Source: Verrucomicrobiota bacterium
GTDB taxonomy: Bacteria > Verrucomicrobiota > Verrucomicrobiia > Methylacidiphilales > JBCCWR01
Reading direction: 5' to 3'
Length of the DNA stretch: 64,000 nt
Assembly (NCBI GenBank): GCA_039193385.1
Contig: JBCCWR010000002.1
Coordinates: forward strand, 2,966 to 66,965
The translations under genes and the position numbers were made by a program. The notes beneath the pieces were generated by a model, which had not been told where the DNA came from, did no database searches, and worked only from the letters and a program-made list of their open reading frames with translations. This document shows, one piece after another, positions 37,604-57,763 of the stretch. The stretch's first letter is position 1. Every line of letters starts with the position of its first letter.

Positions 37604-37619
37604 ATACCGCTTACACATA

Positions 37620-39208: not shown

Positions 39209-39766
39209 ATGAATCAATCAACCACTCATATTCATTACATCGGAATCGATATCGCAAAAGACAAACTTGATGTCCATATCCTTTCCAAGGTGCTTCAAAT
39301 ACCTAATGATAACAAAGGGTTTCATGCCCTCTTAAAGCGATTATCAAAAATATCAAATCCTCACATTATTTGTGAAGCCTCTGGAGCTTGTCATCTCAAG
39401 TTACTCGCATTCCTTAATAAGCATGGAATCGAAATCTCTGTCATTAACCCACGACAGGTTCGTGACTTTGCTAAAGCCAAAGGACTATTAGCAAAAACTG
39501 ATACCATCGATGCACGCCTGCTCACTGACTATGGAGCGTGTCTTAAACCAGCTTCTACAGAACCTCTACCTGACTTTATCCTTCAGTTAACAGAACTCGT
39601 AGATCGTAGAACACAACTACTGCAGATGATTAATGCTGAAAGCAATCGACTCTCTTCTACCAACTCCTCAGATCTTAGAAAAATGCTTAACAGTCATATA
39701 CGTTCCCTTAAAAAGCAGGTTGAGAAACTCATCGAACTCATGGGGCAACTTGTAGATGAACAGTAA
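39209..39766 (+). pseudogene. IS110-family transposase, N-terminal DEDD domain only, truncated by the IS66 insertion
   Basis: YIGIDIAKDKLDVH and ICEASGACH..LINPRQVRDFAKAKGLLAKTDTIDARLL form the IS110 N-domain. The frame stops at a TAA created by the IS66 terminal repeat (cagTAAgcg). The C-terminal Transposase_20 domain is absent. Confidence 0.8.
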
Positions 39767-41354: not shown

Positions 41355-41402
41355 AGTTAAGCCGCTTCCACCCTAACAAATGAGTCTTATAACGTACATC
41401 TT

Positions 41403-41759
41403 TTAATCCTCACGCTCATACCAGGGACGCATGCTACCACTCTTTAAATCAACTCCATCTGTTAACATCGCAAAAGCCTCTGGACTCAGCTTGAGTTTTA
41501 CTGCATTAGGGTTCGTTGTCTTCGGCCAACTAAAACTGCCTTGCTCAAGTCGTTTGCTTAATAGCCACAACCCACTGCCATCCCAATAGATAATCTTCAG
41601 ACGCGTATGCTTGCGATTGCTAAATAAAAACAAAGCGCCTCCACGAACTTCATCACACAATCTGTCTTTAACCAATGCCTCAAGTCCATTAAAACCCTTG
41701 CGCATATCACAGGGCTCCAGAGCCACATAAATCTTCAAGCTCCCACTAAAGCTTAACAT
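41403..41759 (-). CDS. tnpB: IS66 Orf2-like protein TnpB
   Basis: 118 aa. VALEPCDMRKGFNGLEALV, LFLFSNRKHTRLKIIYWDGSGLWLLSKRLE is the standard IS66 TnpB signature. Confidence 0.92.
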   Translation of the reverse strand: MLSFSGSLKIYVALEPCDMRKGFNGLEALVKDRLCDEVRGGALFLFSNRKHTRLKIIYWDGSGLWLLSKRLEQGSFSWPKTTNPNAVKLKLSPEAFAMLTDGVDLKSGSMRPWYERED

Positions 41760-41762
41760 CTC

Positions 41763-42138
41763 TTACTTGCCCAAAAGATTTACTAACTCAGCTACCAGTG
41801 GCAGTTGACTACGATCACTGACTTCCACCTTCGTCCCGTTAGCCAATTCCACCTTGAGAACACCTGGCTTTGCTTCGACCACGGCCTCTACCAGAGCTAA
41901 GGATTTAGGTGCCTTCTTTACCTTAGGCTTATGATTGCTGGTGTCTTTAGCTATATACTCGCCACGGGCTCGCCTGCGATTACAAAAAGGTCTGCTGGCC
42001 TATCCCATAATGCCTGCAAAATTGTGAGGCTGGCATCCCGCTCTTTTCAAACTCATCAAGTAATGCTTCACGTTTCTCGGGCGGCAATGTCACGCGTCCT
42101 AACACATCTGTTTTTAAGATCTCTAGCTCTTCGTTCAT
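41763..42138 (-). pseudogene. tnpA: IS66 tnpA (orf1) disrupted by an 11-nt deletion
   Basis: It reads MNEELEILKTDVLGRVTLPPEKREALLDEFEKSGMPASQFCRHYGIGQQTFL* and continues in another frame (RRRARGEYIAKD...LVAELVNLLGK*). Compared with the orphan fragment at 37540-37560, 11 nt (ccatgtcgaaa) are missing near 41984. Confidence 0.8.
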
Positions 42139-42215: not shown

Positions 42216-42641
42216 TTAGCAAGCAATTGGACTCGATAGTTTTTCGACCTCAATAGTACCGAAAGCCTTATTTTCTGGGAAGACCAAGACATATTCAGTT
42301 TCAAAATCAAAACGAATTCCCATTTTCCGATGCGCCTTATCGATTATTAAAATCGCAGCATCAATAAGGCATTTTGGAATAAGATGTTTCTCTGCTAAAA
42401 CGTCAATAAACGGAAGCAAATCAACATCGCGAGAAGCACCTAATTCATCTCCTTCTGAACGCCGCCCTTCAGCAAACTTTCCTATGTTACTAAGCTCAAA
42501 AGCAACCAAATCAAATAGCTGATCGAACTCTTGGACAGGTATCTCGCCAAATTCACCATCTCCATTATCGTCTATAAAATGATCAATGAGAGGCTCAATT
42601 TGATCTGCAGAAACAATCACATAATCAAAGTCAGTAGTCAT
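42216..42641 (-). CDS. Putative cognate immunity protein of the RHS toxin
   Basis: About 141 aa from the ATG at 42641, which is 7 nt after the RHS stop. The protein is acidic and cytoplasmic-looking with no signal peptide. The assignment is by position only. Its stop lies 2 nt from the IS66 end. Confidence 0.55.
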   Translation of the reverse strand: MTTDFDYVIVSADQIEPLIDHFIDDNGDGEFGEIPVQEFDQLFDLVAFELSNIGKFAEGRRSEGDELGASRDVDLLPFIDVLAEKHLIPKCLIDAAILIIDKAHRKMGIRFDFETEYVLVFPENKAFGTIEVEKLSSPIAC

Positions 42642-42648
42642 AGAATTA

Positions 42649-45600
42649 CTATCTTCCTTCAAATGCTCTCTTACGAGCATTCATTGCTGCCCCAATCGCA
42701 TTTGCAGTGGGATTCTCGGTGTCGGTATCAAATGTTCCATATTTAGAGTTATTACGTATCGATTGGAATGTATCACTATATGCATTTCCAACAGGCTCCA
42801 CTGTAACGTCATAGAAGGTGGCACTTTTCACAGCATTCTCAGTAGCGCCCGCAAGACCCTCTGCTTGCAAATCAACAACAAAGAAAGCGGCGGCGCTAAG
42901 TGGTCCCAATTTCCGGGCGAGCTTTCCACCCATCTTATTAAACATCCCTCCCCTTTTGTTGAAGAGCTTAGGGTTTAACCCAGTCTGAAGTTTCATCATT
43001 TTATTTTTACCTCCAAAATCATCTAACATCTCGTTGAGACCAGTAGTATTAGCCCCCTTCCCAACCATCTCGTTAAACTGCTTATTGTACGGGTCTGAAT
43101 TAATCTGATCTACCAGCATGCTCGCGAGTTCTTTAGATTTCTTGGCTGATAAACCTCCTATATCAACACCATCTTTCTTAACTAACTCTAGCACCTGATC
43201 GACAATCTCACTGGACCTTTTGTCGTAGACTTCGTGAGCATTAGACCAACCATGCCGCGGCATTCCCCTTGGTTTTCCTGCGGGAACTTTCATGTCTTCT
43301 AATGCATCTGTGAGATGCTGATTCCAATTGTCTGTTCCGTGCATCTCCCTAAGTTTCGCGCGTGTAACAACATGGTGATCAGTGGGCTTAACTCCAGGTG
43401 GATCATCTTTACGCAACCCTGTTGGGTCGAACATGGTCCAAGGATTTTGGACGACATAGGTGTAGACGTTTGGACCGTCGACAAAGCCTAGGGGGTCTCG
43501 TGTGATGAAGACACCGGCTTCGAGGTCGCGGTAACGGAACCCTTCGTTGAGGAGGCCGGTGGGGTCTTCGTCTTTGGTATTTGCACGTTGGCGGTCAGTA
43601 TTTGTCCCTATCTCGGCGGTGCGTTTTCCGAAGGCCTCGTATTGGGCCTGCCATCCGATCGCGCCAAGCGGGTCTGTTTTGGCTACAACGTCGCCACGGC
43701 TGTTGTAGTGGTTAAATGCTGGAGTGTCGGATCTGAGGGTATAGAGAATACCTCCGATGCCGCCACCGTAGTCGCTACCACGGATATACTCTACCTCCGG
43801 AGAAGATGATACGGTGGTCGTGTGCTCCTGGACTGATGTGCCGCCAGAGAATGAGAGGATCGTTAAGTCGCGACCAGAGATTGCGCTTTCGTCGCGAACT
43901 ACGCGTCTGAGACGTTGGTCGTAAGCATAAGCGTAACTTCCGGTGTCGGCAGTTCCCGTCTGGTAATCTAGAGTGATCAGGCGGTTGTCATAGTCGTAAC
44001 TATAGGTATCGGTGTGGGTACCGTCGCTCCGTGAGCTGCGGTTTCCGTTGGCATCATAGGTGTAGCTGATGATTTGAGTGCCATCCGACAGTGTGATAAG
44101 TTGATTACTATTGGCGGTGCTCGCGCTGCTGCCGTCTCCAAAGGTATACGTTGTGGTGGTGTCAAGAACGGTATCGGTGTAAGTCCGCTTGGCAGATCTG
44201 TTATGAGCATCATCGTAATCGTATTCAGTGAGGTTGGTAGTGCCCCCCGAAATTGCGATTTCTTCGGAGTCCAGCCGATAGGTGCGGTCGTAAGTATTTG
44301 TAATGACACGATCTGTCAGATTCCCTAGCGGATAGAACTCTTCGATCTGACGGATATTGGAGACGGCATCGTAAGCATACCGATATTCAGCGAATGGTTG
44401 TAGGGCAGATGGGGCGGTATTCGTAGCGTTTTCCTTGCGACCAAGGATGTCGTATACACATTCTATAATTACGCCATTCGGAAGCGTCTTCCTAACAATG
44501 TCTCCAGCTGGGTTGTATTGGTATTCAGTTTCACGCGTGCCGTCGGTGAGTGTTTCCAGGCGGTTGAGCACGTCATAGGTGGATGTCAACAGGCGTGACG
44601 ATTCCCCATATGTGGTGCTTCTACGGTTGCCTGCCTTGTCATAGATGTAAGTGTGTGTGATCCCCGCCGAAGTCTCGGTTTGTAGACGATTGAGTGGATC
44701 GTAGGTGGATGCAACTGCCCGGATAGAGTCCACCTCATTCGGATACGTGACTGAAAGAATATTTCCGTTCGGATCGTATGCATAGTCGCGATCGTCAATA
44801 GCGCGACCGGTAAATCTGACATTTTTTAGGCGGTTTAGATCATCATATTCGTACGCAGTGTACTGAGCCTTCTCGTCAGTGCGGCCATACATTAGAAGTG
44901 CGTTGTAGTGGCTTTCGTGAGTGCGTTCGAGCTCTTGCCCTGAATCCCAGATCGTGTGCGTTTTTCGAGACAAGCCGTCGTAACGGAACTCGGTAACGGC
45001 TCCCTTGCCATCGGTGACGCGTGTTTGGTTGCCCGTATCGTCGTATTGGTAGGATACGAGAATATCGTCCGTATTCAGTGTACCTTCGACAATCGATGGT
45101 TGACCCGTAGTGGGATTCGTAACGGTCGAAGTCAGCCTGTTTAATGCATCATAGAAGTTGACTGTGACGTTATCCTCCGAATCGGTAACTGTTTTGATAT
45201 TCGAGTTTTTGTCATAGGTGGTGGAAGTGACTAAGGCTTGGGCACTCACCTCACCGAACACGGGAACGGCTGAAGTCGTGGTGGTTGTGGGACGGTTCGC
45301 ATTATCAAATGTGATTACAGTGCTGAGGCCACGCGGATCTGTCGTCCCGATGACATTACCTACCCCATCATAGTCAGTGATCGTTGTTGGCCATACAATC
45401 GGCTCAGCAGGATTTGAATAGTCAACAACCGCGGGAGCTCGCTCGCTTATCTGGCGATTTCTTGCATCATAGGTGTAATTCCAACGAAAACCTCGCGGAT
45501 TAATTGTCGCTGATATATTCGAGGCCGCATCGTAAATCGTTTCGGTAACAGGGGATCCTATAAGTGTATCATCGGCAGGTTGTCGATCGATTGCTCCCAC

Positions 45601-48600
45601 TAATGACAACGGATCGGTCTGCCAGACTTTCACTGGTCTACCGGCGGCGTCATATTCCGTTTCGGTCCGATTTCCGCGTGGATCCATTACCTGGTAAGCG
45701 AGTCCCGTACTTGAGTAGCTTGTGGTAGTCAGAGTCTCCAGGGGGTCCCCGAATGCATCGCGTACCTCAACGACACGGCCAAGGCCGTCTCGCGTAGTCT
45801 GAACTACCTTTCCTAGAGGGTCACGCGCCGTTGAAATCAAGGACTCTTTTTCCCCGACAATGTCTCCGTAGTCTGTAGATGTCAGAGCTGAGACACCTGA
45901 GACATACTCTACCGTAGTGGACTCTTCTCGGTAAACTTCATCATACACGATGATAGTGCTAAATGTTTCGGTGTCCAAGAAGGTCCTATAGGCGTCGTGT
46001 TGGATGATTTGTGTCGGCTTGAAACCTTCGCTACCGAATGCACTAGCCCCGGGATTCCGGAAATTGTCGTAGACGTATTCTGTGTGCGTCCTTTCGGATG
46101 ATCCCGAAATCGTGGGATTTCCATTAATCTCTTCGCCATTCCCGTCTACAGCCGTTCCTTCATAATTGGTATAGGTATGCACGACACGTTGAATATCGTC
46201 GTAAAAATTACGTGTAACAATGCCTCGTGGATCGGTCACAGATGTCAGCGAGTTTACATCATTGTATGTATAGGAAGTAACGATGTCCGCCTCGGTGATC
46301 TCTCCTCGGTTATCATCCGCAAGTATCTGTGGCTCAAATTCAAAAGGAATCGATGGCAGGCCAAGTCCGTCCATGTCGACGATGGTACGGATTTTTCTTC
46401 CGAGTTCATCATAGTGGTGCATGGTATGGTGCCCCTCTTCATCAATTTCCAAAGTAAGGTTACCACTATAATCGTAGATGTATCTAACAAAAGTCACACG
46501 CTCACCATTTAGGGTTCCCGCGGATGGGTAAGTGACTTTCACCAGTCGATTTAATTTATCGTAAGTAAAGGTAGTGGTATTGTTTCTGGGGTCTGTAGCA
46601 GAAGTGCGATTTCCATTATTATCGTAAAGGTAGGAAGTCGTGAGAGCGAGGCCCTCTGGATCTACTATTTCCCGGAATATACGGCCGTTGCTGTCCGCCA
46701 CGTATTCAGTAACAAGATCCGTCTCCCATGCTTGCCCACTGATATTTGCGTAAGCATCAACCTTCTTTCGGGTCATAAATTTTGGGAAACCTGAGTTCGT
46801 GAAGAAGTAGTCTTCTTGGCTTAGTTTTACACCCGATGAATCTTCAACTATTTTATCAGTTCGCCGCCCCAGGCTATCTATATCGTATTCGGTGCGGGTT
46901 CCATGCTCATCAACAATTTTGGACATGATCCGGTAATCACCGGTATACTGATATGTGGTCACTCGACCGAGGGCGTCAGTCATTATAGTGGGGTCCGACC
47001 ATTTACTCATCATGTTCGGGAAATTTGTGGTAGTGATACGAGAACCCGCACTCGCACCACGAGAATTTTGGAATTCCCATTCCGTGGTATTCCCCGAAAA
47101 ATCTTCAATACTCTCTAAGCTGAGACCTGAATCAGGGTCGAAGGTGAATGTTTCAGTACCGATTGGGGTCTCATTACTATGGGCACCTCCATAGTAGCTT
47201 ACTTCCATGGTCTCATAATAGAGAAGCCATTCGCTGGAGGTACCGGTTGAGCTATCACCATAGGTGATATTTTTATCTATAATTTCACCGCTGACATCCT
47301 GAAAGGAGTAAATGGTATAATTACCTTCAGTATCCTCAATTATTGTCTCTACGTTCGTCGCTGTGAACCTGGGTCCAAATTCCAGAGACGTATTACCTTT
47401 CGAAAACTCACTCTGACGATTTCCGGGAAGGGTGACTTTCTTGACTAGTCTAGGTAATCCATAGGTCTTATTATAGTCCGATTGACTACTGGAGCCATCG
47501 TCTCCATTTATGTCCTCTAGCTGTTGATTTATTTCCGCCTGGGCATTCAATGGAAGGTGATTTGTCGAGACAGGGACATATACAGCGCTTCCTCCACTCG
47601 CGGAATAGCTTTTGATGGTTTCGTTTGGCTCATATTCGAAAGTGTAGGTATTTTCGCGCTTATCGGTAATTGAAGTGATATTACCGTGATAGAAACTCGT
47701 TGGTGAGTCCGGATTGATTTCGGCATCTGAATCCTCAGCGAAGCCATAATCATACTGCTTAGAGGTTCCATCGGGATAATCTACTGACATCAGCTTAGTC
47801 ACATCATATTCAACAAACTCTTTTTCAGTGAGATAATTAAACTCGATCGTATTTCCGCGCGGATCGGTAATAGAATCAATTCTTCTACAATCGTCGCTTC
47901 GGGCAATCGAGATGCTCTGCCCTGGGAATTCCGGTGAACTAATCGAGGTCGGTATTAGTGAAACGGACGAGCCTCCATAGTCATAGTTAAGAATGTTGCC
48001 GAACCGATCTTCTACTTGCACCAACCGCCAATACGTATGCTTTTTGGTGCTGTCGCCGCCGTCCACACGGTTTGAAGAGTAATGGAACCACGCATCGCAT
48101 TTCGCATAGGTCAATGTATTACCATACTTCTTATAGAGCACCAAATTGTCACCGCTCCGTTCGAGTCTATTCTCGTAGGTCTTAGCATCTACCAGTGACG
48201 AGGGCCAAGGGAAGAATGCGTCATCACTATCGATTCCGAATCTCTGAGAATGACCATTCTCGTCGACGACATTTACGCTCATTGGAGCAGTCATAACGCC
48301 GGACCCTAGGCTTTCGACCTGCTCAACATAGGAACATATATTAGAGCTCCACCCTGCTCCGAAAGGCAGAGTCAACCGTTCATGGGGCCTTAGACCTGAA
48401 CGATCCGTCCAACTCAATTCACTCGCAGAAGCTGTCACGCTCAGGACTAACTCGCTGGAGGCCAAGGGGACGTAGACATAGGAAGTATCATGCCTTAGGC
48501 TGAGATCAAACGCATCAATATACGTCTCTTCATTCTCTAAGTCTTTCTCATCTTCCTCTTGTGGTTTCTCGTCGGGAATGGGACGCCCGTTCAATGCAAT

Positions 48601-50931
48601 CTTACGGTAGCGCGGTCCGACTGAGTCTCTTCCAGAGTAGCTCTCGGACCAGCTGGTGCTGGCAATTGGGATCAGATAGGCAGACTTCGTCGACCACTCG
48701 GACTCAGGCACATCATCGTTGAAATAGTCAGGATTGGCTCTCAACCATTCCGAGACATCACTAGCATTTTTTCCATCCTCTGATAAAGGCGGAGTAAGAA
48801 GACTATCGGGGTCAATTACTAAAAACCCATTGGCTTCGACATTGGACACGTAGTCATAGTCAAATCGATTTTGCTCAGAGGCTATATGTTCGAGGGTAAT
48901 CTCATAAATCTGACCTCCTGCCAAAACTAAAGAATAATTGTAAACCGAACCAAATCCTTGCGAAGTCGCGCTTTGATTTCCGATATTTAGACTCCACCTT
49001 TCAGACTCACTACCTGATGGATCGCCAATATAGCCACCAATGGTGTAACCACCGCCAAACGAATAATCGAGACCGACGTCACCTATATCACCACAGTCTA
49101 AGTCACTGACATCAGGACCGTTATACTCGCCAGGCACAAAAGGCTTACTCGTATTACTCGTCGGATCGCCTCCGCCGAGTAATTCGTCATTATCGTCGTA
49201 TCCATCAAAATCGCTATCGGCTAGGTCGGGATTCGTTCCATACAGAAATTCCGTGGCAGTATCTAAACCGTCGTTATCGAAATCCACGCCAATTAGCTCG
49301 TCCGGAACCAAAGGATTGAGGAAGATACTATTAAATTCGTCAACATCCGCTATGAGATCGAAATCAGTATCCCAATAATTTGGATCAGTGCCAGTTTGGA
49401 ACTCTTCGAGATTTGTTAGTCCATCTTCATCAAGGTCCAATACTGCGTCAGAAGAGTCGAAAGGATCGAGACCTGCATTTAATTCCCAGACTCCGTTCAT
49501 GCCATCATTGTCACCATTTATCACATCCCATTCGATAACAAAGCGCTGAGAACCATTTGAGACGAAATCGATGAATATTGCAGGTTCACCACTGTCAAAT
49601 AAGCCTATCTCGGTTTGCTGGTCAGATGCATAAATCGGTAGGCCATTCTGGGTAATTTTTTTAATGTATAGGAAGATGTCAGAGCTCGGCGAATATTGAG
49701 CTATCCGACGCATAGACCAAGAAATCTCCTGCCCTCGGGGAAACCAATTGTCTCCGATCCAACTCACGTTGACTTCGAGGTTTAAGTTTTCTCGATAATA
49801 GAGAGAGTCGACGATGACGCGAACTCGATCTAATTCCAAGGCGTTTAATCCACGAAACAGTTCAGTGAAATTGTCCAAGCCATCTGAGTCTTCGTCGGAG
49901 GTGCCGTCAAATGAAAGGTCAGCGAATAAATTTTGCTCCCAGTCATCGGGTAAGTAATCGAAATCGGTATCAATCCAAGGTGTCAAAAATGCACCAATTA
50001 CAGGTCTTACTGTCTCTTCATCCTCAGCTTCATCTTCTTCTGGATAGACTCGTATATAAGTAGGTGCGCTGAAGGATCTCTTAGCGGGCTCACTGGTCGC
50101 GATTGCGCCATCTGCATTGAATATGCTAAATATCGTGTTGTCGTGCTGAGCCGTCAGGTGACTGATCAGTGAATCTGGATTCACAACAAAACCATCTTCT
50201 TTATCAAACTGTGTGACCACCATGTAGTTTCCTGGGCCCGGAAGTTCTATTTCATATAGAAATTTATAACGATAAAGTGGGCAAATAACATTCTGTGGTG
50301 ATAAACGTTCCGAGGAATAAGGATCCACCGGATCGATATCTAACTCAATAGCGTTGTCGAGTAACCCATCAGCGATATCGGATTGTTCGAGTGTATCCAA
50401 GTCGACAACATATATCTGCGGGCGAGGAAAATCGTCTTCGTCAAAAAACTCCGCTATTCCATCTGGATAACCGCTGCCCGCCCTATAGTCAGTAGGAATT
50501 TGTATAACACCCGTTCCAAACAAAATTTCTAGATCCAACTCTATAGTGTTCGATTCGACGGAGTAACCCATATTATCGGTAAATGCATCAGCATTCGGAA
50601 CAGTGACTGTTGCTTCTACAAAACGTCCGTCCCAAGAGACTAAGTCGACGAAAGTTTCCTCTCCTTCACCCGGCAGGAGGGTCGGACCATCTGGTCCTAT
50701 TTCGAATTCGACGACAGTTCCGTCACACAAGGTAAACGATGTTATACCTGGTCCGTCGTGGAAACTATCGAAATTCGTTATGCGTTCTCCAAAACATTCA
50801 CCGTTCAAAACATATAGAGTCTGAATTCCATCACCCACAACGAGATTAAAATCCCGAAAACTGAATGATTCATTGTCCGCAAAAGCTGAACTCGAACAGA
50901 CAAATAAAAATATTATAATCCTTTTAAGCAT
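42649..50931 (-). CDS. Giant Sec-signal RHS/YD-repeat polymorphic toxin (about 2760 aa)
   Basis: Signal peptide MLKRIIIFLFVCSSSAFA|D from the ATG at 50931. TSP3-type Ca-binding repeats (DLDEDGLTNLEEF, DSDFDGYDDNDE). Dozens of YD repeats (YDALNRL, YDGLSRK, YDDLNRL, YDPLNRL, YDVLNRL). Core end GGGIGGILY...FITRDPLGFVDGPNVYTYVVQNPWTMFDPTGL, followed by a 254-aa C-terminal tip. Confidence 0.92.
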   Translation of the reverse strand: MLKRIIIFLFVCSSSAFADNESFSFRDFNLVVGDGIQTLYVLNGECFGERITNFDSFHDGPGITSFTLCDGTVVEFEIGPDGPTLLPGEGEETFVDLVSWDGRFVEATVTVPNADAFTDNMGYSVESNTIELDLEILFGTGVIQIPTDYRAGSGYPDGIAEFFDEDDFPRPQIYVVDLDTLEQSDIADGLLDNAIELDIDPVDPYSSERLSPQNVICPLYRYKFLYEIELPGPGNYMVVTQFDKEDGFVVNPDSLISHLTAQHDNTIFSIFNADGAIATSEPAKRSFSAPTYIRVYPEEDEAEDEETVRPVIGAFLTPWIDTDFDYLPDDWEQNLFADLSFDGTSDEDSDGLDNFTELFRGLNALELDRVRVIVDSLYYRENLNLEVNVSWIGDNWFPRGQEISWSMRRIAQYSPSSDIFLYIKKITQNGLPIYASDQQTEIGLFDSGEPAIFIDFVSNGSQRFVIEWDVINGDNDGMNGVWELNAGLDPFDSSDAVLDLDEDGLTNLEEFQTGTDPNYWDTDFDLIADVDEFNSIFLNPLVPDELIGVDFDNDGLDTATEFLYGTNPDLADSDFDGYDDNDELLGGGDPTSNTSKPFVPGEYNGPDVSDLDCGDIGDVGLDYSFGGGYTIGGYIGDPSGSESERWSLNIGNQSATSQGFGSVYNYSLVLAGGQIYEITLEHIASEQNRFDYDYVSNVEANGFLVIDPDSLLTPPLSEDGKNASDVSEWLRANPDYFNDDVPESEWSTKSAYLIPIASTSWSESYSGRDSVGPRYRKIALNGRPIPDEKPQEEDEKDLENEETYIDAFDLSLRHDTSYVYVPLASSELVLSVTASASELSWTDRSGLRPHERLTLPFGAGWSSNICSYVEQVESLGSGVMTAPMSVNVVDENGHSQRFGIDSDDAFFPWPSSLVDAKTYENRLERSGDNLVLYKKYGNTLTYAKCDAWFHYSSNRVDGGDSTKKHTYWRLVQVEDRFGNILNYDYGGSSVSLIPTSISSPEFPGQSISIARSDDCRRIDSITDPRGNTIEFNYLTEKEFVEYDVTKLMSVDYPDGTSKQYDYGFAEDSDAEINPDSPTSFYHGNITSITDKRENTYTFEYEPNETIKSYSASGGSAVYVPVSTNHLPLNAQAEINQQLEDINGDDGSSSQSDYNKTYGLPRLVKKVTLPGNRQSEFSKGNTSLEFGPRFTATNVETIIEDTEGNYTIYSFQDVSGEIIDKNITYGDSSTGTSSEWLLYYETMEVSYYGGAHSNETPIGTETFTFDPDSGLSLESIEDFSGNTTEWEFQNSRGASAGSRITTTNFPNMMSKWSDPTIMTDALGRVTTYQYTGDYRIMSKIVDEHGTRTEYDIDSLGRRTDKIVEDSSGVKLSQEDYFFTNSGFPKFMTRKKVDAYANISGQAWETDLVTEYVADSNGRIFREIVDPEGLALTTSYLYDNNGNRTSATDPRNNTTTFTYDKLNRLVKVTYPSAGTLNGERVTFVRYIYDYSGNLTLEIDEEGHHTMHHYDELGRKIRTIVDMDGLGLPSIPFEFEPQILADDNRGEITEADIVTSYTYNDVNSLTSVTDPRGIVTRNFYDDIQRVVHTYTNYEGTAVDGNGEEINGNPTISGSSERTHTEYVYDNFRNPGASAFGSEGFKPTQIIQHDAYRTFLDTETFSTIIVYDEVYREESTTVEYVSGVSALTSTDYGDIVGEKESLISTARDPLGKVVQTTRDGLGRVVEVRDAFGDPLETLTTTSYSSTGLAYQVMDPRGNRTETEYDAAGRPVKVWQTDPLSLVGAIDRQPADDTLIGSPVTETIYDAASNISATINPRGFRWNYTYDARNRQISERAPAVVDYSNPAEPIVWPTTITDYDGVGNVIGTTDPRGLSTVITFDNANRPTTTTTSAVPVFGEVSAQALVTSTTYDKNSNIKTVTDSEDNVTVNFYDALNRLTSTVTNPTTGQPSIVEGTLNTDDILVSYQYDDTGNQTRVTDGKGAVTEFRYDGLSRKTHTIWDSGQELERTHESHYNALLMYGRTDEKAQYTAYEYDDLNRLKNVRFTGRAIDDRDYAYDPNGNILSVTYPNEVDSIRAVASTYDPLNRLQTETSAGITHTYIYDKAGNRRSTTYGESSRLLTSTYDVLNRLETLTDGTRETEYQYNPAGDIVRKTLPNGVIIECVYDILGRKENATNTAPSALQPFAEYRYAYDAVSNIRQIEEFYPLGNLTDRVITNTYDRTYRLDSEEIAISGGTTNLTEYDYDDAHNRSAKRTYTDTVLDTTTTYTFGDGSSASTANSNQLITLSDGTQIISYTYDANGNRSSRSDGTHTDTYSYDYDNRLITLDYQTGTADTGSYAYAYDQRLRRVVRDESAISGRDLTILSFSGGTSVQEHTTTVSSSPEVEYIRGSDYGGGIGGILYTLRSDTPAFNHYNSRGDVVAKTDPLGAIGWQAQYEAFGKRTAEIGTNTDRQRANTKDEDPTGLLNEGFRYRDLEAGVFITRDPLGFVDGPNVYTYVVQNPWTMFDPTGLRKDDPPGVKPTDHHVVTRAKLREMHGTDNWNQHLTDALEDMKVPAGKPRGMPRHGWSNAHEVYDKRSSEIVDQVLELVKKDGVDIGGLSAKKSKELASMLVDQINSDPYNKQFNEMVGKGANTTGLNEMLDDFGGKNKMMKLQTGLNPKLFNKRGGMFNKMGGKLARKLGPLSAAAFFVVDLQAEGLAGATENAVKSATFYDVTVEPVGNAYSDTFQSIRNNSKYGTFDTDTENPTANAIGAAMNARKRAFEGR

Positions 50932-50936
50932 GGCTA

Positions 50937-51188
50937 CTAATTTTTGACAGGCGTCCACTCATACCAAATGTCGCGGGGCTGAGATTGAAAGCTGTCCAGT
51001 AAATCAGTAATGTCTGTGCCATTAACTTTAACACTTTTTATCGACGGTGGTCTCTCTTTTGATAAGGGTATATTAGACCCTGCGGCGAATGGTGTAAATA
51101 CCTGCCCATTCAGATTTAGAACTATTAGAAAAAAAACTAGAATTGCGGCACTTGTAGCCAAAAAGATGTGTTTGTGACGTTTACTCAT
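50937..51188 (-). CDS. Small N-terminally anchored membrane/periplasmic protein
   Basis: 83 aa with one N-terminal TM helix (IFLATSAAILVFFLIVLNL). It starts 1 nt after the upstream stop and ends 5 nt before the RHS ATG. No family was recognised. Confidence 0.5.
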   Translation of the reverse strand: MSKRHKHIFLATSAAILVFFLIVLNLNGQVFTPFAAGSNIPLSKERPPSIKSVKVNGTDITDLLDSFQSQPRDIWYEWTPVKN

Positions 51189-51189
51189 T

Positions 51190-52125
51190 TTAATTGTTCG
51201 TTAACTTTTTTGCCAAATAGCGAAGATTTGCGTGCGTTGTCGTGCTCAAGAAATTCTCCAAGCCAGTGCTCACATCTGCATGCCACACCGCATTCTTTTT
51301 TAAGGCACCGAGCACTGCTAGCTGTATACCGACAGATGGACTCGGCTGTTCACCCAAAATCTGCACAGCAATCCGCGTACTGGCAACATCGCCGATTTCA
51401 CCAAGAGCCTGGATAGCGCTTATTCTTGAGGCTTCGGAAAAAGTGACGTCTTGAGCGATAATGTTGGCAACTTGCTTAATAACAGAAAGTTCAAACTCAG
51501 GACACGACACACAGAGGTAGACCAAATTGATAAAAGAAGTCCCACACAGAGAATTCTTTTCAAACAAACAATTTGCGATCACAGATTGAAAGGCGTCTCG
51601 AAGCTCGGTCAAATATTCTGGCACAGCACCGACCCAAGTGCGCTCATAAAAATCCACAAAATACTGTAGCACGTATTCACGCCAAATTATGGACTGTGAA
51701 GTGTCTAAGACGATATGAAGCATCAATTGACCCACGAGATGTGGATTTTCATCGCTGTGTATGTATTTGACCAACAAATCATTCCTTAGAGAGTAAGTCG
51801 ATAGTTCCCCAAAAGACCCTGTTGGCACAGGGATATTGTTTGAAAGGAAGAAAATGAGAGCAGTGTGGTCTGCTTCACTTAAATCATCAATAACTACCTT
51901 ACTCGCAATCTTGGCCCGTGTAATGTAATCTGTGGTATTTTTTAGGAGCAGGACTGCATCGTTCGACATTGCTGCCGCATCGATAGTGGGCACTTCAAAG
52001 GTATTCACAAAACTCACACTTGGCGGTGGATTCCCTGCTATTCGAGCTGTCACGGTATCTCGAAATACGGAGGCATTAACTAAGTTAACACTCAACAAGA
52101 AAAAATTGATCATTATAAATTTCAT
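51190..52125 (-). CDS. Secreted alpha-helical (HEAT/ARM-like repeat) protein
   Basis: Signal peptide from the ATG at 52125 (MKFIMINFFLLSVNLVNASV). The C-terminal ISAIQALGEIGDVASTRIAVQILGEQPSPSVGIQLAVLGALKKN resembles PBS-lyase-type HEAT repeats. The fold call is weak. Confidence 0.4.
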   Translation of the reverse strand: MKFIMINFFLLSVNLVNASVFRDTVTARIAGNPPPSVSFVNTFEVPTIDAAAMSNDAVLLLKNTTDYITRAKIASKVVIDDLSEADHTALIFFLSNNIPVPTGSFGELSTYSLRNDLLVKYIHSDENPHLVGQLMLHIVLDTSQSIIWREYVLQYFVDFYERTWVGAVPEYLTELRDAFQSVIANCLFEKNSLCGTSFINLVYLCVSCPEFELSVIKQVANIIAQDVTFSEASRISAIQALGEIGDVASTRIAVQILGEQPSPSVGIQLAVLGALKKNAVWHADVSTGLENFLSTTTHANLRYLAKKLTNN

Positions 52126-52130
52126 AACAG

Positions 52131-55100
52131 CTATCTTCTCCCGATTTTTCCAATTAAAACACCGTCCTGGTAGACGTATGTCCGGTGACATACGGAACCT
52201 CGCACACTATCTGGCTTTATGAGGACAAAGTCGTAGGTGCCGTCGACTGCAAACTCAGACAATGAAACTTCGCGGACCCGCGTCCCGTCATCAAAGGTAA
52301 CCCCTGCCTTAAAAATATCTATTCTGATCAAAATATCCTCGGAGGAGAAGTCCGGAGAAATATACAGAGTGCTTTGAACTAAACTAGTACCATCCTGACG
52401 CTTGAATTGCTTCAAATACCCTTCAACGGCTTCAACAAGCCAAAACGTATTCATCTCGACTGAAGTAATAGGAGAGCCATCGGGCAGCCTTGCGGTCAAA
52501 GTGTTGCCAGGAAACTCTAAGTTTGAACCGAGTTCGAAATGAATAGAATTTTCACCTATAGACTTAACCTTTGCCAAGGCTTGGCCTCTACTAATTGGCA
52601 ACAGAGGTGAAATGTTTTCCCAGGTCCATTCTCTTTGCTGCTCCAACCAAACGTTGGGAACATGAGATGTATCCGGAATTTCCACTACATCAACAACAAT
52701 TTGCCGAGAGTCCGTCACACCACCAGGATAAGTTACATCGGCAATGATCGTGTATTGGCCGCTTTCCGAGAACTTGTGGACAGTCTCTTCACTTCCAGAT
52801 AGGTTGCCGTATACGGAAGAACCAATGTTTACATGACCATTGACCCCCGCCAGCTCAGAGAGTATGAACTTGAGCTGCGAGCCAGTAGTGACAATGAATT
52901 CTTCTGGAGAGTCGTCCGCAAACAGAACCATGGGCTCCCAAGACACATCGATAATCTGCGATAAGCCGCCATTCTGATAATCAACCACAAAGCTTGTATT
53001 GGGCTCAGACACCTCAATCCGAGTGTACCATTGATTCGTTTCGCTACGCCTCAAAAACGCCCCGTTTGATATGGCCATCATCCCGGGAAAGCGAGAGAAA
53101 CCTTCAAGTGAAACCGGGGACACATGGGTCATTATATTGCTCTCGAAAGCACCCTCCTGAGCGCTCAAAATAGCCAATTCCCACTCATCACGAAGCACCT
53201 CCGTTGCGAAATCTGGAGACTCTACTTTCACATAGTCAATTTGAACTGACCTTCCTCTAAAAACATTGTCCCATCTCAGATTGAAAGTATGCGAACCTAC
53301 ATCGAGGTAAGGCGTTAGTAGCACTTGATCTTGAGAGAATTCCGCGTCAGCTATTTGCACATTTTCAAGGTATTGACCGTTAATCTTCGCTACAAAGAAG
53401 ACAGGCATGCCAAGAGTGAGCTGAGTTTCAATACGGCGCGCTACTTTATAATGAATCTCATAGATTCCGGGGGTCGTGATATTGAAATCAAAAGAGAGTT
53501 CACCGTTTAACGACGAAGAATAAATTGAATCACCACTCATAACCCAGCTTCCAGAGAGAGTTGACGCTTCGCTTCCGCTTATTGTCAGAACAGTTGACGT
53601 CGAAGCATATTCTGAAACAAGAGGATCTGAGCCGCGCACCAGAACTTCTTCCCCATCGCTAACTCCATCACTATCGGTATCCGCGTTGAGAGGATTTGTG
53701 CTGTAAATTGTTACTTCATCAAGGTCAGAGAGTCCATCAAAGTCTGTATCTCGCGTATATCCGACTAACTCCACGTTTGCTGCGACAAATTCTCGATCGC
53801 CACGACCAGAGCTTAAGTAGATGCCAGCTACAGTATTCAAATCAAATTGGGTCGCGGTCTCAGCAATCACGCTCCAGAGAATACCGTCCCCAGAAGCCTC
53901 TACAACAGTGAGAATTTCACCGCGCGTAACTCTGAGGTATAGTCCTGGCAGGAAATCACCATAATAGGTCGGGCCGTTTATAGTAAGCTTGTCGCTATCG
54001 CTTGCTCGAGTCGATTGATAAAATCTATCCGTAATTCTTAAATAACCGGCAACCATTTTCGAGTCCACGTCGATACTATTACGAACCATTAAGCCTACCT
54101 GGGTTTTATTATTTCCCGACTCTACGTTGTCTACGCGGAAGGTCATAGAATAACCCCCGGTATTCTCTCGATAGAAAAAACTACTGTCCTCAACGCCATT
54201 GCCTGCAGAGCTAAGCAGCCAGGAGTCCCCAAATACAAAACCATAACCCGAATCGACATTGCCATAATCCACGGTCTGCCATGGATCTGGCAGAAGACCA
54301 TCGGGAGCTTCACTTGAATCTATCGGAGAAGTCCGAGCAAACAATTCTTCGGTATCCGTGAAACCATCTCCGTCCGTATCAATAAGGTTAGGATCAGTAT
54401 AGATGTCAAATTCTTCGATATTAGCGAGCCCGTCTGCATCTAGGTCATCCTCGCTATCATCTACTAATAGATTTAACCCATTGTTATACTCCCAAAGATC
54501 CGACATGCCATCAGAGTCCGTATCGAACGCATAGAGATTGCTTCCAACAAGCCTCTCCGTTTCATTAAGTAAACCATCTCCGTCGAAATCCATTCCCTCG
54601 GGTTCGCCATTTGAGACAATAAAATTATCAAACTGGGCAGAACTCGAGCTTGCAGAATTTTGAAGGATATCTAAGTGAGAGAAATAGACGAGATCAGCGT
54701 TCACGAAAGGAATGTCTTGTGCATACATGACACCATTTAAAAATACAGAAGTCGTTTTCGTGATGTAGTCGAGATAGAAGGCGTATTGATTGACTCCGGG
54801 CACTAGACTAGATGGAAATATATCGATCCATTCGCCCGCCTTTGCGTCCCAGATTGAAATACTCGTCTCGTCTTTTTTGCCGATCACGAAGGCGTGGAGT
54901 GTGGCAATCGTTTCAGGCAGGTCACCTTCCAATAAATCGGCGTCAAAGGATACCCAGACTCGTCGCTGGTTCTCTATTCCGAAACGTTGGGTGGCAGAGC
55001 TAATTTCGACTCCGTTATCGATAATTGCCAAAGATTCATCCCCCTGAACCTCTGCGGTTCCTGTGCTAAGCCATCCGAGCTGACCATTGAGAGGGCCTGG

Positions 55101-56753
55101 TAGATAGCCTTCTGATGGAGAAAATTCGGCAAACCATGAGAAAACGCCATTTCCTTGAGGACTTAAGGAGGCAATCAAGACGTCAGGGACAATCGGATCC
55201 ATCCCCCATTGAATCTCGGTGAGGTCTCCTACACCATCTCCGTCTGTATCGAATAAAAGTGGATTAGTTCCGCGCACACCTTCTTCTTCGTTTGACAAAC
55301 CATCACGGTCGTCATCCAGCCCCAGAGGTTGCACAGTTGACACCGTTAAATTGTCCAGGCCCGTGTCGCCATAAATCTCCATCTGCGTCAGAAATGGTTT
55401 CGTTCGGATAAAGGGAATGTCCGAAAAAACGCGCGTGCCATCGACATAGTAATCAGTCAGCTGATTTAAATAGTCGCTTTTGAGCGTAATACGTCTCCAA
55501 GAACCGGACGCGATTACATCTGCGGTCAACCAGCGCTGACCTACTGGAAAAGACGGATCATAGACGCGTAATCTCTGTGAATCATCGAATGAAAAGGCCG
55601 AGCTCACATCTGCATCGATGACGTCTTCCATGTCTCCCGGGGTAGGCTTGAGCCATTGGTCGACCCACACAACCGAATTGCCTGAGCCTTTCAAAAAGCT
55701 AAACACTTCAGATGTGCCGCTTACCATCAAATTCTGATTTCCATCGAAGGAACTACCGGTAGCGATCGACACCGAATCTCCGACAATCGTCCATGCGTCC
55801 GTAGTGCTCAAAGGCCCAGCAGTCCAAGATTCAAATCCTTCGAAGAGCGGTAAATCGTTAAAAACAAAAAGATCTGCGACTGTTGGATCTGTTTCTGCAG
55901 CCAATTCTGCGCTATCACTGAATCCATCGCCGTCCGTATCGGGATTGGTGGCACCGGTTGTGAGCTGGTATTCCTGCAAATTGTTCAGGCCGTCGAAATC
56001 GGGGTCGAGGTAGCGCTGGTTGATCAGGGTATCCAGCCCCTGTAGCTGGAGCCAGGTGTCGGGTAACCCATCATTGGAGGTATCGGCGTAGAGCGGATTG
56101 GTCGACCCGGCGTAGAAGAAGTCCAGACCGGTGCCGTAGTTGGGGTCGGACTCTAGGGAGAATTTCTCCAGAAAGTTGGCTGAGTTATCCAGAAAACCGA
56201 TATCATAAGCGACGAAGGTGCCGTCGACAAAGAGGTCCCAGGTCTTGGAAAGATAATCCAGACGATAGCTTAAGCGCATCCACGCAGTCGCTTGGCCCCC
56301 CGAAAGATTAAAGGTGCTCGCGGTATCGAGCCACTGCCCACCCCCCAGGCCATCGCCATCCAGGACAAACACTGAGCCCGTGCCGACAACATCCACAAAA
56401 CCGGTAGTCGCTGGCGATACTTGCAAGCTGGCCTCGGGCAAATTGGCCAGCGGACCCGCAACGGGCTTCAGATAAAAGTCCACCCAGCGCACCGCATTCG
56501 AAAGCGGATCTATGAAATCCAAACTAAAAAAACCCTGCCCTTGCAGCGATATCGACTGTTGGCCCGAGACCGAGTCCCCGTCGACGACACTGGCCTGCAA
56601 AAAGGCGGGATCGAGCAACCAATCGGGATCCGATAGCAAAAGACCCGGCGTATACTCCTCAGCCGTCTCAAAATCCGTCTGAAACGGCAGCGGAGTCTGC
56701 GCAACAAGCGAGGATAATGCTACGAAGCAAAGGCCTATGGATGCTAACTTCAT
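52131..56753 (-). CDS. 1540-aa secreted protein: three LamG/concanavalin-like modules separated by TSP3-type calcium-binding linkers, plus further beta-sandwich domains
   Basis: Signal peptide present. Three paralogous modules of about 190 aa begin TDFETAEEYTPG, EGFESWTAGPL and AEFSPSEGYLPGPL. Each ends in a (Y/D)Y...T..(F/Y).(D/N)G......I.F pattern. Linkers include NPDTDGDGFSDSAE, FDTDGDGVGDLTE, DTDSDGMSDLWE, DTDGDGFTDTEE and DTDSDGVSDGEE. Confidence 0.6.
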   Translation of the reverse strand: MKLASIGLCFVALSSLVAQTPLPFQTDFETAEEYTPGLLLSDPDWLLDPAFLQASVVDGDSVSGQQSISLQGQGFFSLDFIDPLSNAVRWVDFYLKPVAGPLANLPEASLQVSPATTGFVDVVGTGSVFVLDGDGLGGGQWLDTASTFNLSGGQATAWMRLSYRLDYLSKTWDLFVDGTFVAYDIGFLDNSANFLEKFSLESDPNYGTGLDFFYAGSTNPLYADTSNDGLPDTWLQLQGLDTLINQRYLDPDFDGLNNLQEYQLTTGATNPDTDGDGFSDSAELAAETDPTVADLFVFNDLPLFEGFESWTAGPLSTTDAWTIVGDSVSIATGSSFDGNQNLMVSGTSEVFSFLKGSGNSVVWVDQWLKPTPGDMEDVIDADVSSAFSFDDSQRLRVYDPSFPVGQRWLTADVIASGSWRRITLKSDYLNQLTDYYVDGTRVFSDIPFIRTKPFLTQMEIYGDTGLDNLTVSTVQPLGLDDDRDGLSNEEEGVRGTNPLLFDTDGDGVGDLTEIQWGMDPIVPDVLIASLSPQGNGVFSWFAEFSPSEGYLPGPLNGQLGWLSTGTAEVQGDESLAIIDNGVEISSATQRFGIENQRRVWVSFDADLLEGDLPETIATLHAFVIGKKDETSISIWDAKAGEWIDIFPSSLVPGVNQYAFYLDYITKTTSVFLNGVMYAQDIPFVNADLVYFSHLDILQNSASSSSAQFDNFIVSNGEPEGMDFDGDGLLNETERLVGSNLYAFDTDSDGMSDLWEYNNGLNLLVDDSEDDLDADGLANIEEFDIYTDPNLIDTDGDGFTDTEELFARTSPIDSSEAPDGLLPDPWQTVDYGNVDSGYGFVFGDSWLLSSAGNGVEDSSFFYRENTGGYSMTFRVDNVESGNNKTQVGLMVRNSIDVDSKMVAGYLRITDRFYQSTRASDSDKLTINGPTYYGDFLPGLYLRVTRGEILTVVEASGDGILWSVIAETATQFDLNTVAGIYLSSGRGDREFVAANVELVGYTRDTDFDGLSDLDEVTIYSTNPLNADTDSDGVSDGEEVLVRGSDPLVSEYASTSTVLTISGSEASTLSGSWVMSGDSIYSSSLNGELSFDFNITTPGIYEIHYKVARRIETQLTLGMPVFFVAKINGQYLENVQIADAEFSQDQVLLTPYLDVGSHTFNLRWDNVFRGRSVQIDYVKVESPDFATEVLRDEWELAILSAQEGAFESNIMTHVSPVSLEGFSRFPGMMAISNGAFLRRSETNQWYTRIEVSEPNTSFVVDYQNGGLSQIIDVSWEPMVLFADDSPEEFIVTTGSQLKFILSELAGVNGHVNIGSSVYGNLSGSEETVHKFSESGQYTIIADVTYPGGVTDSRQIVVDVVEIPDTSHVPNVWLEQQREWTWENISPLLPISRGQALAKVKSIGENSIHFELGSNLEFPGNTLTARLPDGSPITSVEMNTFWLVEAVEGYLKQFKRQDGTSLVQSTLYISPDFSSEDILIRIDIFKAGVTFDDGTRVREVSLSEFAVDGTYDFVLIKPDSVRGSVCHRTYVYQDGVLIGKIGRR

Positions 56754-56773
56754 GAGGGCAACTGACCTAAAAA

Positions 56774-57523
56774 TCAGGGATTAGGACGGATCAGGCACGC
56801 TTCTGAAAGCGAACGCCCAGCAACAAAAGTAGGACTAGTAATCCACCCCCCCAGCGATCCCAGCATAATCACAGTGCCGGCAGAAGGCGGCGACGCGATG
56901 TCCACCGTGAGCGTGGGGACTGGCAGCCCACTGGTGTTGGTTATCGAGGCAAATTTGATGAGCGCAATAGGCCCCGCTGCGGATAAAACCAAGGTGATCT
57001 CATTGTTGGTATCGGTCTGCAACAGCGCAAACAAGTCACTGGCTGACAATTGGATGCTTAGATCGCCGGTTTCACCAGCTGCAATAGGCAGCGATCCTAA
57101 AGGACTGGTGACGGTGATCCCCTCGTTCGCGCTTACGGACCCGGTACCATGCGGGCGGTCCGCCGGGCCCATCACAGCGGTCCAGGCAGTCTCGCTCACC
57201 CCGTCGAGCAGCGCGCTGACATGCAAATTTTCCACACTTGCACTTGTGGTATTGATGCGATGCAGAGTCAGTGTCGCCGATACGATATCAGAGGCTTGAG
57301 TAATTTGCGGAAGGAGCGATGAAACATCAAAACGCAGATAGGACAACCGGTCATGAACCCCAGTGGCCGTGTAATGTCTGCGAACCTGCAGGGTTTCGCT
57401 TTCGTTCCGATCCTCGCCAATGACACGGCTAAAGGCATTTTCGGTAGCCACAATCGAGACCGAATCGCCGTAGGCGCTGGTGGTTGCCAATACAATTAGA
57501 AAAAACAAGGAGCGATGTATCAT
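56774..57523 (-). CDS. Secreted DNRLRE-like domain protein whose PEP-CTERM-like anchor is out of frame at a C7/G7 tract
   Basis: Signal peptide present. RLSYLRFDVSSLL...ATLTLHRI is DNRLRE-like. After the homopolymer at 56846-56852 the annotated frame ends in non-hydrophobic sequence. With one G fewer the tail reads SPPSAGTVIMLGSLGGGLLVLLLLLGVRFQKRA* with a stop at 56791. Confidence 0.55.
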   Translation of the reverse strand: MIHRSLFFLIVLATTSAYGDSVSIVATENAFSRVIGEDRNESETLQVRRHYTATGVHDRLSYLRFDVSSLLPQITQASDIVSATLTLHRINTTSASVENLHVSALLDGVSETAWTAVMGPADRPHGTGSVSANEGITVTSPLGSLPIAAGETGDLSIQLSASDLFALLQTDTNNEITLVLSAAGPIALIKFASITNTSGLPVPTLTVDIASPPSAGTVIMLGSLGGWITSPTFVAGRSLSEACLIRPNP

Positions 57524-57727
57524 TTTAAATATTAGGATAAATAGGTTATAAATAGATATTTATTTAACGAGGGCGTACAGAAGCATTTTATTAAAACAAG
57601 TAAAGAAAAAACTGCCGAAAAAACGTCAACTCACTCACTCAATATAGATGGTCGATAGAGGCCTGCTATCTGAGGAAATGAAGGAGTAATAAGCAGTCCA
57701 TGATTACGCTAAACGATAAATGAAAAA

Positions 57728-57763
57728 GGGGTCACCCATTTTTCTAATGGGCGACCCTTTTTT
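57728..57763. terminator. Bidirectional rho-independent-type hairpin
   Basis: gggGTCACCCATT-tttct-AATGGGCGACcc pairs at 11 of 12 positions. It is flanked by A5 on the 5' side and T6 on the 3' side, so both strands see a U-tract. It lies about 75 nt 3' of the minus-strand sulfatase gene and upstream of the RHS operon. Confidence 0.6.

Follow-up and report, generated by a model that had tools for sequence, protein, structure and literature searches.

How does a large RHS toxin that is exported by Sec get out of a diderm cell, and do the genes next to it contribute to this step? The question is raised by a 64,000-nucleotide (nt) stretch of contig JBCCWR010000002.1 (assembly GCA_039193385.1), hereafter called the window. 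It comes from a metagenome-assembled genome (MAG) of a marine polysaccharide-degrading member of the Verrucomicrobiota, whose closest relatives are Opitutales and Cerasicoccus. Verrucomicrobiota, Opitutales and Cerasicoccus included, are diderms. On its minus strand the window carries six open reading frames (ORFs), g1 to g6, the fifth of which encodes a giant RHS protein (Table 1). The initial annotation had taken them together as a six-gene RHS operon, with accessory products serving as presentation or export factors for a toxin whose exit was not explained by known routes. This last statement was too strong: signal-peptide RHS toxins ('T2SS/Sec', for type II secretion system/Sec) were catalogued as a class in all bacteria by Zhang et al. 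in 2012 (PMC3482391), Table 1 of which gives no signature neighbourhood genes for the Sec class. The exit of such toxins from diderm cells has been an open question since that catalogue. The signal-peptide RHS class itself being already known (PMC3482391), what is new here is the cassette under a Sec-type RHS toxin.

We give slightly better than even chances to the following reading: g2 to g5 are an Opitutae-type four-gene cassette for giant exoproteins, and the lineage of the window has grafted an RHS cage, a toxin and g6 onto one of its two giants, giant B.

The conserved cassette and its variable cargo

The product of g2, giant A, and that of g3 were found in nine of nine lineages, all of them Opitutae-type Verrucomicrobiota. 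In six of these both g4 and the N-terminal domain (NTD) of g5 were present, and in the other three both were missing. The order giant A, g3, g4, NTD-bearing giant (giant B), with tight spacing, was seen in the window, in an Opitutales MAG (L002/L003), in L004/L005 (the metagenome loci L004-L008 keep the order of L002/L003), and again in L009, L010 and L016, which were reached through the contigs of NTD relatives detected by HMMER. A distant clade II was obtained by scanning species genomes and metagenomes with g3 profiles. In its members, Cerasicoccus maritimus NBRC 105382 (L012), an Opitutae MAG (L013/L014) and L015, giant A is followed by a g3-like gene and then by other signal-peptide proteins, with neither g4 nor the NTD. 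The metagenome scan added two loci only, and the sole addition from a second search, with a g3 profile, was a paralog in L009. Giant B of Cerasicoccus was not counted as an NTD member, since hhalign with the NTD profile aligned a TSP3-like linker only. Comparison of the genes flanking the cassette across loci revealed no conservation. Judged by these occurrences, the core unit is g2, g3, g4 and the ~474-amino-acid (aa) NTD of g5, a rare and undescribed cassette of four genes; the six-gene RHS operon does not stand as the unit, g1 not being conserved.

The NTD consists of two beta-rich parts joined by a Ca-binding-like linker, W-D-D-D-LPD-WE / DED-DG-N-E. An exhaustive HMMER search of 1.84 billion representative proteins with g5 residues 1-474 returned five true relatives, all other matches being limited to the TSP3-like linker. 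The family is tiny and always lies within the cassette context. In g5 the N-terminus reads, by inspection, as a signal peptide, MLKRIIIFLFVCSSSAFA, cleaved before DNES and conserved in the orthologs. Of the seven family members, the six with an available N-terminus all carry a conserved, canonical signal peptide of the n/h/c type; the seventh, P0035, is a fragment without this end.

Behind the NTD the cargo varies. The NTD leads to an RHS region in the window and in its 73%-identical sister L002 only. It is followed in L005 by TSP3 repeats, a stretch whose sequence reads as beta-helix-like (Pfam gave no match), a GDPSGSxSERW domain and DUF3238; in L009 by a beta-helix/pectinesterase-like region and a C-terminus homologous to the last 530 aa of giant A; and in L010 by six Big_7 domains. 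C-termini that are neither RHS nor toxin-looking are thus found in three of the five lineages where the NTD-giant could be read to its C-terminus (the L016 contig ends earlier). Because non-RHS cargo lies behind the NTD elsewhere, the partner genes track the NTD and not the RHS. The synteny of accessory genes with RHS genes that had been predicted for relatives was therefore recovered in part: g2, g3 and g4 keep the same order in six independent lineages next to an NTD gene, but it is the NTD that they accompany, and g1 is missing from the closest relative.

Two further arrangements were observed. Right behind giant B, L009 (10412-13891) encodes a g3 paralog (P0154, 289 aa). The gene of a separate RHS protein with a signal peptide begins 13 nt further on; this protein has at least 866 aa, the contig stopping within it. 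Going by this gene order, RHS has a second tie to the cassette, in another arrangement. In L013 (10637-15825; also in L014), giant A and the g3-like gene are followed by two signal-peptide proteins of 391 and 450 aa, whose first 130 aa are 73% identical and whose C-termini are unrelated, one of them showing the motif HEEEH. Between the pair and behind it are small genes (289, 144, 252 and 218 aa), a layout reminiscent of an array of polymorphic toxins and immunity genes. Just upstream of giant A, L012 (3673-4593, minus strand) and L013 (3522-4400, minus strand) each carry a divergent, helix-rich protein of ~300 aa with an N-terminal anchor; BLAST detected no similarity between the two and Pfam no match in either.

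Giant A of the window has a signal peptide, an isoelectric point (pI) of 4.05, TSP3 Ca-binding repeats (TSP3_bac, E = 3e-19) and beta-rich lectin- or immunoglobulin (Ig)-like modules. Its orthologs, present in all nine cassette lineages, are 30-64% identical, and some carry PA14, DUF1349 or Laminin_G_3. Of the LamG/TSP3 description initially given to g2, the TSP3 part holds but the LamG part does not: no LamG model matched g2 itself, and a faint Laminin_G_3 was seen in the L010 ortholog only. Sequence and profile comparison with the PDB returned a single match, the Ca-binding segment of Bap. No TcA-like match was obtained in Pfam, NCBIfam or the PDB, and a reading as a toxin complex (Tc)-like ABC system was dropped, giant A having no TcA features. 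The last ~530 aa of giant A (residues 1002-1535) are homologous to residues 2146-2730 of L009 giant B (24% identity, E = 6e-25); the two giants of the cassette therefore swap modules.

The best-conserved protein of the cassette is g3, always encoded directly after giant A and 45-75% identical in clade I, ~31% in clade II. Its homologs are very scarce (among 5.8 billion proteins) and every one lies in the same gene arrangement. AlphaFold2 (AF2) gave an all-alpha model of 17 helices (predicted local distance difference test, pLDDT, 84; predicted template modelling score 0.78). The top Foldseek matches were alphaRep, designed ARM, PP2A-A, MO25 and importin (probability 0.99-1.0, E >= 8e-3, template modelling score <= 0.47), and HEAT_2 matched the L016 homolog at 2e-5, under its cut-off. 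We thus regard g3 as a confidently modelled Sec-exported HEAT/ARM-like alpha-solenoid, which designates a fold class and not a specific family, and which agrees with its first description as a HEAT-like secreted protein. Modelling was less informative for the NTD, whose beta-rich AF2 model was poor (pLDDT 57) and gave no significant fold match.

No family could be assigned to g3 or to g4. In the latter, a signal peptide precedes a mature part of ~55 conserved aa, QVFTPF..GNNPPL..RP..I..V.INGxD..LDGFQ.Q..D.WY.W, with 21 invariant columns in an alignment of five orthologs; g4-homologous ORFs are also present, though uncalled, in L010 and L016. The orthologs show AKA directly before the QVF of the mature part, and g4 looks like a small secreted protein that is cleaved. 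The initial annotation had given all of g1 to g5 a signal peptide or an N-terminal anchor. Signals of the n/h/c type are indeed seen by inspection at all five N-termini (g6 has none), but g4 does not appear anchored. It occurs only where the NTD exists and is missing from the three NTD-less lineages, which suggests that g4 pairs with the NTD. For the g3-like solenoids, the partner would be large cargo: giant A in each of the lineages, and in L009 the separate RHS protein as well.

The RHS cage and toxin tip of g5

By all sequence hallmarks g5 is a true RHS polymorphic toxin, as had been proposed. The RHS/YD shell matched RHS_repeat of Pfam at 7.6e-53 (176 bits versus a cut-off of 22) and YD_repeat_2x (TIGR01643) at 3.5e-30. 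Rhs_assc_core (TIGR03696) matched residues 2431-2506 with 49 bits (cut-off 32.5), and the core ends with DPLGF...DPTGL, which contains the DPxGL autoproteolysis motif (sequence ...RDPLGFVDGPNVYTYVVQNPWTMFDPTGL). Sequence matches in the PDB were Rhs (7q97), Tse5 (8cp6), TcdB2-TccC3 and YenC2, in the core only (residues 2060-2507 for TcdB2-TccC3).

Ahead of the shell lie ~800 aa of secreted-type modules. The region that follows the NTD, with acidic TSP3-like linkers and the 'GDPSGSxSERW' beta domain, matched L005 giant B by BLASTP (g5 471-701 versus 1481-1693, E = 7e-22), where this domain precedes a different C-terminal part. TSP3 linkers had been reported as common to g5 and g2; TSP3_bac fell short of E = 0.01 on g5, yet the D-x-D-x-DG linkers align with TSP3-bearing orthologs. 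At the start of the RHS region, residues 801-900 (nt 48232-48531) are 94% identical to L002, against ~55-75% on either side. This segment may be an N-terminal plug or closure of the cage.

Pfam and NCBIfam detected no PAAR, prePAAR, VgrG-related, TcB N-terminal, two-partner secretion (TPS) or TANFOR domain on g5. Among the window ORFs of at least 150 aa there was no component of a type VI secretion system (T6SS), of Tc or of TPS, no secretin and no exosortase. The description of g5 as a Sec-signal protein devoid of PAAR, VgrG, TcA/TcB or TPS features, in the protein as in the 64 kb, thus held on re-examination.

Along its body, g5 is 54-97% identical to its L002 ortholog (73% overall), reaching 97% at residues 2401-2500. 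After DP[TK]GL, from residue 2507, identity falls to 14-25%. This collapse right after the core makes it a textbook case of C-terminal displacement. Both tips share an [DG]HH motif (DHH in g5) and a hydrophobic Gly/Ala segment. A Pfam search of both tips at E <= 5 returned nothing, nor did an NCBIfam scan of full-length g5 (E <= 0.01) on the tip; an HNH-like reading of the motif would be a guess. The tip and g6 have a GC content of 0.42, compared with 0.50 in the core. Located 7 nt after g5, g6 carries no signal peptide and is acidic (pI 4.24, 21% D+E). Pfam and NCBIfam gave no family match for g6 and the other loci no homolog, the L002 contig ending before the equivalent position. By its position only, g6 would be an acidic cytoplasmic candidate immunity protein; it goes with the toxin tip and not with the conserved cassette.

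Comparison with known systems and rival explanations

Close to g5 among known toxins are those of the Sec RHS class, of which WapA of Bacillus subtilis is the studied example. They share with g5 a Sec signal, an RHS cage, a core ended by DPxGL and predicted to cleave itself, a displaceable toxin and, if g6 is one, a downstream immunity-type gene. WapA, however, acts from a monoderm wall, whereas the host of g5 is a diderm and an outer-membrane step is needed. In addition, and unlike in that class, the g5 cage is preceded by ~800 aa comprising a specific NTD, TSP3 linkers and the GDPSGS domain, and its gene by three co-conserved partner genes. In architecture, the nearest parallel is found in the TANFOR toxins of Bacteroidetes (PMC7073777), which are also large Sec-signal proteins with a conserved N-terminal domain and a variable payload, fused or encoded by the next gene, and for which the outer-membrane route was inferred from gene neighbourhood only (PMC7073777), as here. 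The likeness is in architecture only. The N-terminal domains are unrelated (no TANFOR/TIGR02542 match on g5 in NCBIfam), the cassette belongs to another phylum with no type IX secretion system (T9SS), many of its payloads are non-toxin, and its partners are giant A, an alpha-solenoid and a small protein instead of T9SS substrates.

Other systems share single parts. CdiA/CdiB resembles the logic proposed for g5 (a long surface-displayed scaffold, a swappable C-terminal toxin and an adjacent immunity gene), but no TPS domain, FhaC/CdiB (Omp85-type) beta-barrel gene or FHA repeats are found in the block or the window. T6SS Rhs effectors (Photorhabdus Rhs1, 7q97; Pseudomonas Tse5, 8cp6) have a homologous shell and core, a polymorphic toxin and an immunity gene, of which g6 would be the counterpart; in the window, by contrast, PAAR/prePAAR and a VgrG/Eag/hcp context are absent and g5 has a Sec signal peptide instead. 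In Tc, an RHS cocoon (TcB-TcC) also lies beside a very large partner (TcA), and the g5 core is homologous to TcdB2-TccC3 and YenC2. However, g5 has no SpvB, TcB mid-domain or beta-propeller, all the proteins carry Sec signals, and giant A shows TSP3 repeats and lectin-like modules in place of a TcA-like helical pore or shell. Stretches of Ca-binding TSP3 repeats are also common to giant A and to the Myxococcus surface proteins CglD and MtsD (NCBIfam NF033765 and NF047639); with 55 and 40 bits against equivalog cut-offs of 400 and 800, the match concerns the repeats only and implies no orthology.

Starting from the gene order, domain content, gene co-occurrence and polymorphic tip, which are directly observed, we infer localisation, roles for g3 and g4, toxicity, immunity and co-transcription as follows. 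The cassette would make two giant, acidic, Ca-binding, lectin-/Ig-rich exoproteins, giant A and the NTD-bearing giant B, along with two small Sec-exported partners. In the lineage of the window, the variable C-terminal part of giant B would have been swapped for an RHS cage, a self-cleaving core, a displaceable toxin and g6. Sec would take all five products of g1 to g5 through the inner membrane; g3 and g4 could then bind giant A and the NTD, as chaperone or tether, in the periplasm or on the surface, and the TSP3 linkers would fold upon contact with external Ca2+. The NTD giant would be displayed or released and the RHS cage would hand its toxin to neighbouring cells in a WapA- or CdiA-like manner, g6 shielding the producer. 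As no cassette protein resembles an outer-membrane channel, the outer-membrane step would lie outside the cassette and probably uses a general pathway encoded elsewhere in the genome.

Several points weigh against this proposal. The NTD-fused RHS represents a single acquisition (window and sister), and most loci are metagenome fragments in which the downstream cargo is often cut off. The partner role of g3 and g4 is drawn from co-occurrence only. The signal peptides of g1 to g5 (n/h/c type) were judged by eye. The NTD model is poor and its Foldseek matches (ZP-C, fimbrial subunits, Ig domains), being non-significant, were not used; no fold or family gives a function to the NTD, g4, the giant A C-terminus or the toxin tip.

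In a different explanation, closer to the initial one, g2 to g4 (with g1) would form a dedicated machine, so far undescribed, for carrying or presenting an RHS cage exported by Sec across the outer membrane, hence a new delivery or secretion route. In its favour, these genes and the one bearing the RHS are tightly co-conserved, RHS is tied to the cassette twice (by fusion, and through the g3 paralog and RHS of L009), giant A and g3 of clade II are followed by toxin-like polymorphic genes (the 391-/450-aa pair of L013, with HEEEH), and none of the known RHS routes is seen in the protein or the window. We nevertheless consider a dedicated machine rather unlikely. The non-RHS, non-toxin-looking C-termini of three out of five fully read NTD-giants weaken it, g1 is not conserved, and no cassette protein looks like a beta-barrel of the outer membrane, a secretin or a pore former: giant A is lectin-/Ig-like and Ca-binding, and g3 is a soluble-type solenoid. 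As presentation or export factors, the accessory proteins thus have co-conservation and the second RHS link in their favour, but nothing in them resembles an outer-membrane translocon. The domains found among cassette members (PA14, DUF1349, Laminin_G_3, beta-helix/pectinesterase-like, Big_7) and a setting with many sulfatases and fucosidases and with a CBM96 pectate-lyase-like giant would suit a particle- or glycan-adhesion apparatus with no role in toxin delivery. The RHS, whose fusion is limited to one sub-lineage, would then have recombined onto a secreted scaffold and be freely released (vesicles, lysis) or have another role. This we judge unlikely: the g3 paralog before a separate RHS in L009 argues for a recurrent, not accidental, link, and an actively diversifying tip with a small downstream gene kept implies selection for antagonism from this scaffold. 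That g5 is the cargo of a T6SS or of a Tc-like A component whose genes lie elsewhere in the genome, its signal-peptide-like N-terminus being misleading, seems very improbable in spite of the homology of its core to T6SS Rhs and TcB-TcC shells. It would have to be such cargo with no PAAR, prePAAR, VgrG-binding or TcB N-terminal domain, with an n/h/c signal peptide conserved in all six NTD proteins with an N-terminus present, with ~800 aa of secreted-type modules before the shell, and with no hcp, vgrG, tss or TcA gene within 64 kb.

The four-gene exoprotein cassette with a grafted RHS cage remains our preferred reading. In a bolder reading, unlikely to be right in our opinion, giant A and g3 (with g4 for NTD cargo) would be the cis-encoded core of an undescribed export and display pathway of Opitutae. 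Very large Sec-exported cargo, RHS cages of folded size and further polymorphic toxins among it, would be brought by this pathway across the outer membrane or onto it, with the NTD as targeting domain in the way of TPS, PAAR or TANFOR. With an RHS on a defined NTD and three co-evolving partner genes, the locus offers concrete, testable candidates (g3, g4 and giant A) for the exit step, and the giant A and g3 pair is present in a culturable species, Cerasicoccus maritimus NBRC 105382. The locus would also illustrate how an existing giant exoprotein can acquire a toxin module, in a phylum where secretion has hardly been studied; were the partners mere adhesin accessories, it would still be a clean case of RHS C-terminal displacement in Verrucomicrobiota.

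The gene block and its surroundings

The positions of the genes, of the parts of g5 and of the features around them are collected in Table 1.

Table 1. Features of the g1-g6 block and its borders (positions in the window)
Feature	Positions	Strand	Remarks
g1	56774-57523	minus	249 aa
g2, giant A	52131-56753	minus	1540 aa
g3	51190-52125	minus	311 aa; start agrees with orthologs' starts
g4	50937-51188	minus	83 aa
g5	42649-50931	minus	2760 aa; start agrees with orthologs' starts
g5 residues 1-474, signal peptide and NTD	49510-50931	minus	HMMER family, alignments
g5 residues 475-720, TSP3-like acidic linkers and 'GDPSGSxSERW' beta domain	48772-49509	minus	BLASTP, motif scan
g5 residues ~800-2506, RHS/YD shell	43414-48534	minus	Pfam, NCBIfam, PDB matches
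g5 residues 2507-2760 and stop, variable C-terminal toxin domain	42649-43413	minus	identity drop
g6	42216-42641	minus	141 aa
AT-rich spacer, presumed promoter region	57524-57728	minus	33-36% GC
Intrinsic terminator hairpin of upstream sulfatase gene	57729-57757	minus	12-bp stem, 7 GC pairs, T-run
IS66-family element, context and not module	39843-42138	minus	inserted 77 nt downstream of g6

Chance was ruled out by far for all six ORFs, five of which have homologs or family matches. With the starts given, the intergenic gaps from g1 to g6 are 20, 5, 1, 5 and 7 nt, exactly as first reported. The hairpin terminator and the AT-rich region of ~300 bp described before the block were also found again: the hairpin at 57757-57729 is the sole strong minus-strand terminator within 41.7-58 kb and would mark the upstream limit of a g1-g6 transcription unit, and the spacer upstream of g1 measures 313 bp with 36% GC. 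Weak hairpins inside the block are as frequent as in shuffled sequence, and sigma-70-like matches within the block do not exceed the chance level. Since the only strong terminator sits upstream, internal hairpins occur at the shuffled rate and an AT-rich spacer precedes g1, a single transcription unit for g1 to g6 is plausible.

The first gene, g1, had been described as DNRLRE/PEP-CTERM-like. Its match to DNRLRE (NCBIfam NF033679; 9.4e-8, profile positions 15-163 of 164) falls just short of the cut-off (32.3 versus 34 bits), and Pfam CBM96 matched weakly (0.0047, 17 bits). The PEP-CTERM part was dropped: PEP-CTERM models gave no match at E <= 0.01, the C-terminus (...ASPPSAGTVIMLGSLGGWITS...) has no Arg cluster, and the window has no exosortase gene. 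No counterpart of g1 exists in any other locus, and it is missing upstream of giant A in L002, the closest relative, and in L004; on this distribution, g1 is lineage-specific and outside the conserved cassette.

Downstream, the RHS block adjoins a stretch rich in insertion sequences (IS). The IS66-family element (DDE_Tnp_IS66, 6e-83; TnpB_IS66, 1e-31) comprises a TnpA-like ORF (41980-42138, E = 0.001), TnpB (41403-41759) and the transposase (39843-41354), and a partial second copy of its end, at 37431-37611, is 85.6% identical to 41873-42042. An IS200-like Y1 transposase (374 aa), a truncated IS110 DEDD transposase (185 aa) and a DDE_3 endonuclease fragment lie at 37759-39766 and 29997-30464. 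A ParE toxin gene (36759-37073, plus strand; Pfam 3.8e-13) follows a 64-aa ORF in antitoxin position for which no family match was found, the two spanning 36589-37073; on either side of the pair lies a copy of a 73-bp repeat (36295-36367 and 37620-37692, 98.6% identical). At 37090-37460 (plus strand), a frame with an internal stop reads ...VFVYDGLD(stop)RIE...YLYDG...RGLDLSGTMSGAGGIGGILA...YFFYH and resembles the last part of an RHS shell, interrupted by the IS66 fragment. As a remnant of an RHS core at ~37.1-37.5 kb it was not retained, the resemblance being one of motifs only, unsupported by BLASTP against g5, Pfam or NCBIfam.

Elsewhere, the 64 kb encode sulfatases, fucosidases and a CBM96/pectate-lyase-like giant. 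The latter, a protein of 1185 aa (25407-28964, plus strand), combines a strong CBM96 match (4e-26) with a pectate-lyase-like beta-helix; the weak CBM96/DNRLRE domain of g1 is a module of the same kind, common in the glycan-degrading proteins of this genome.

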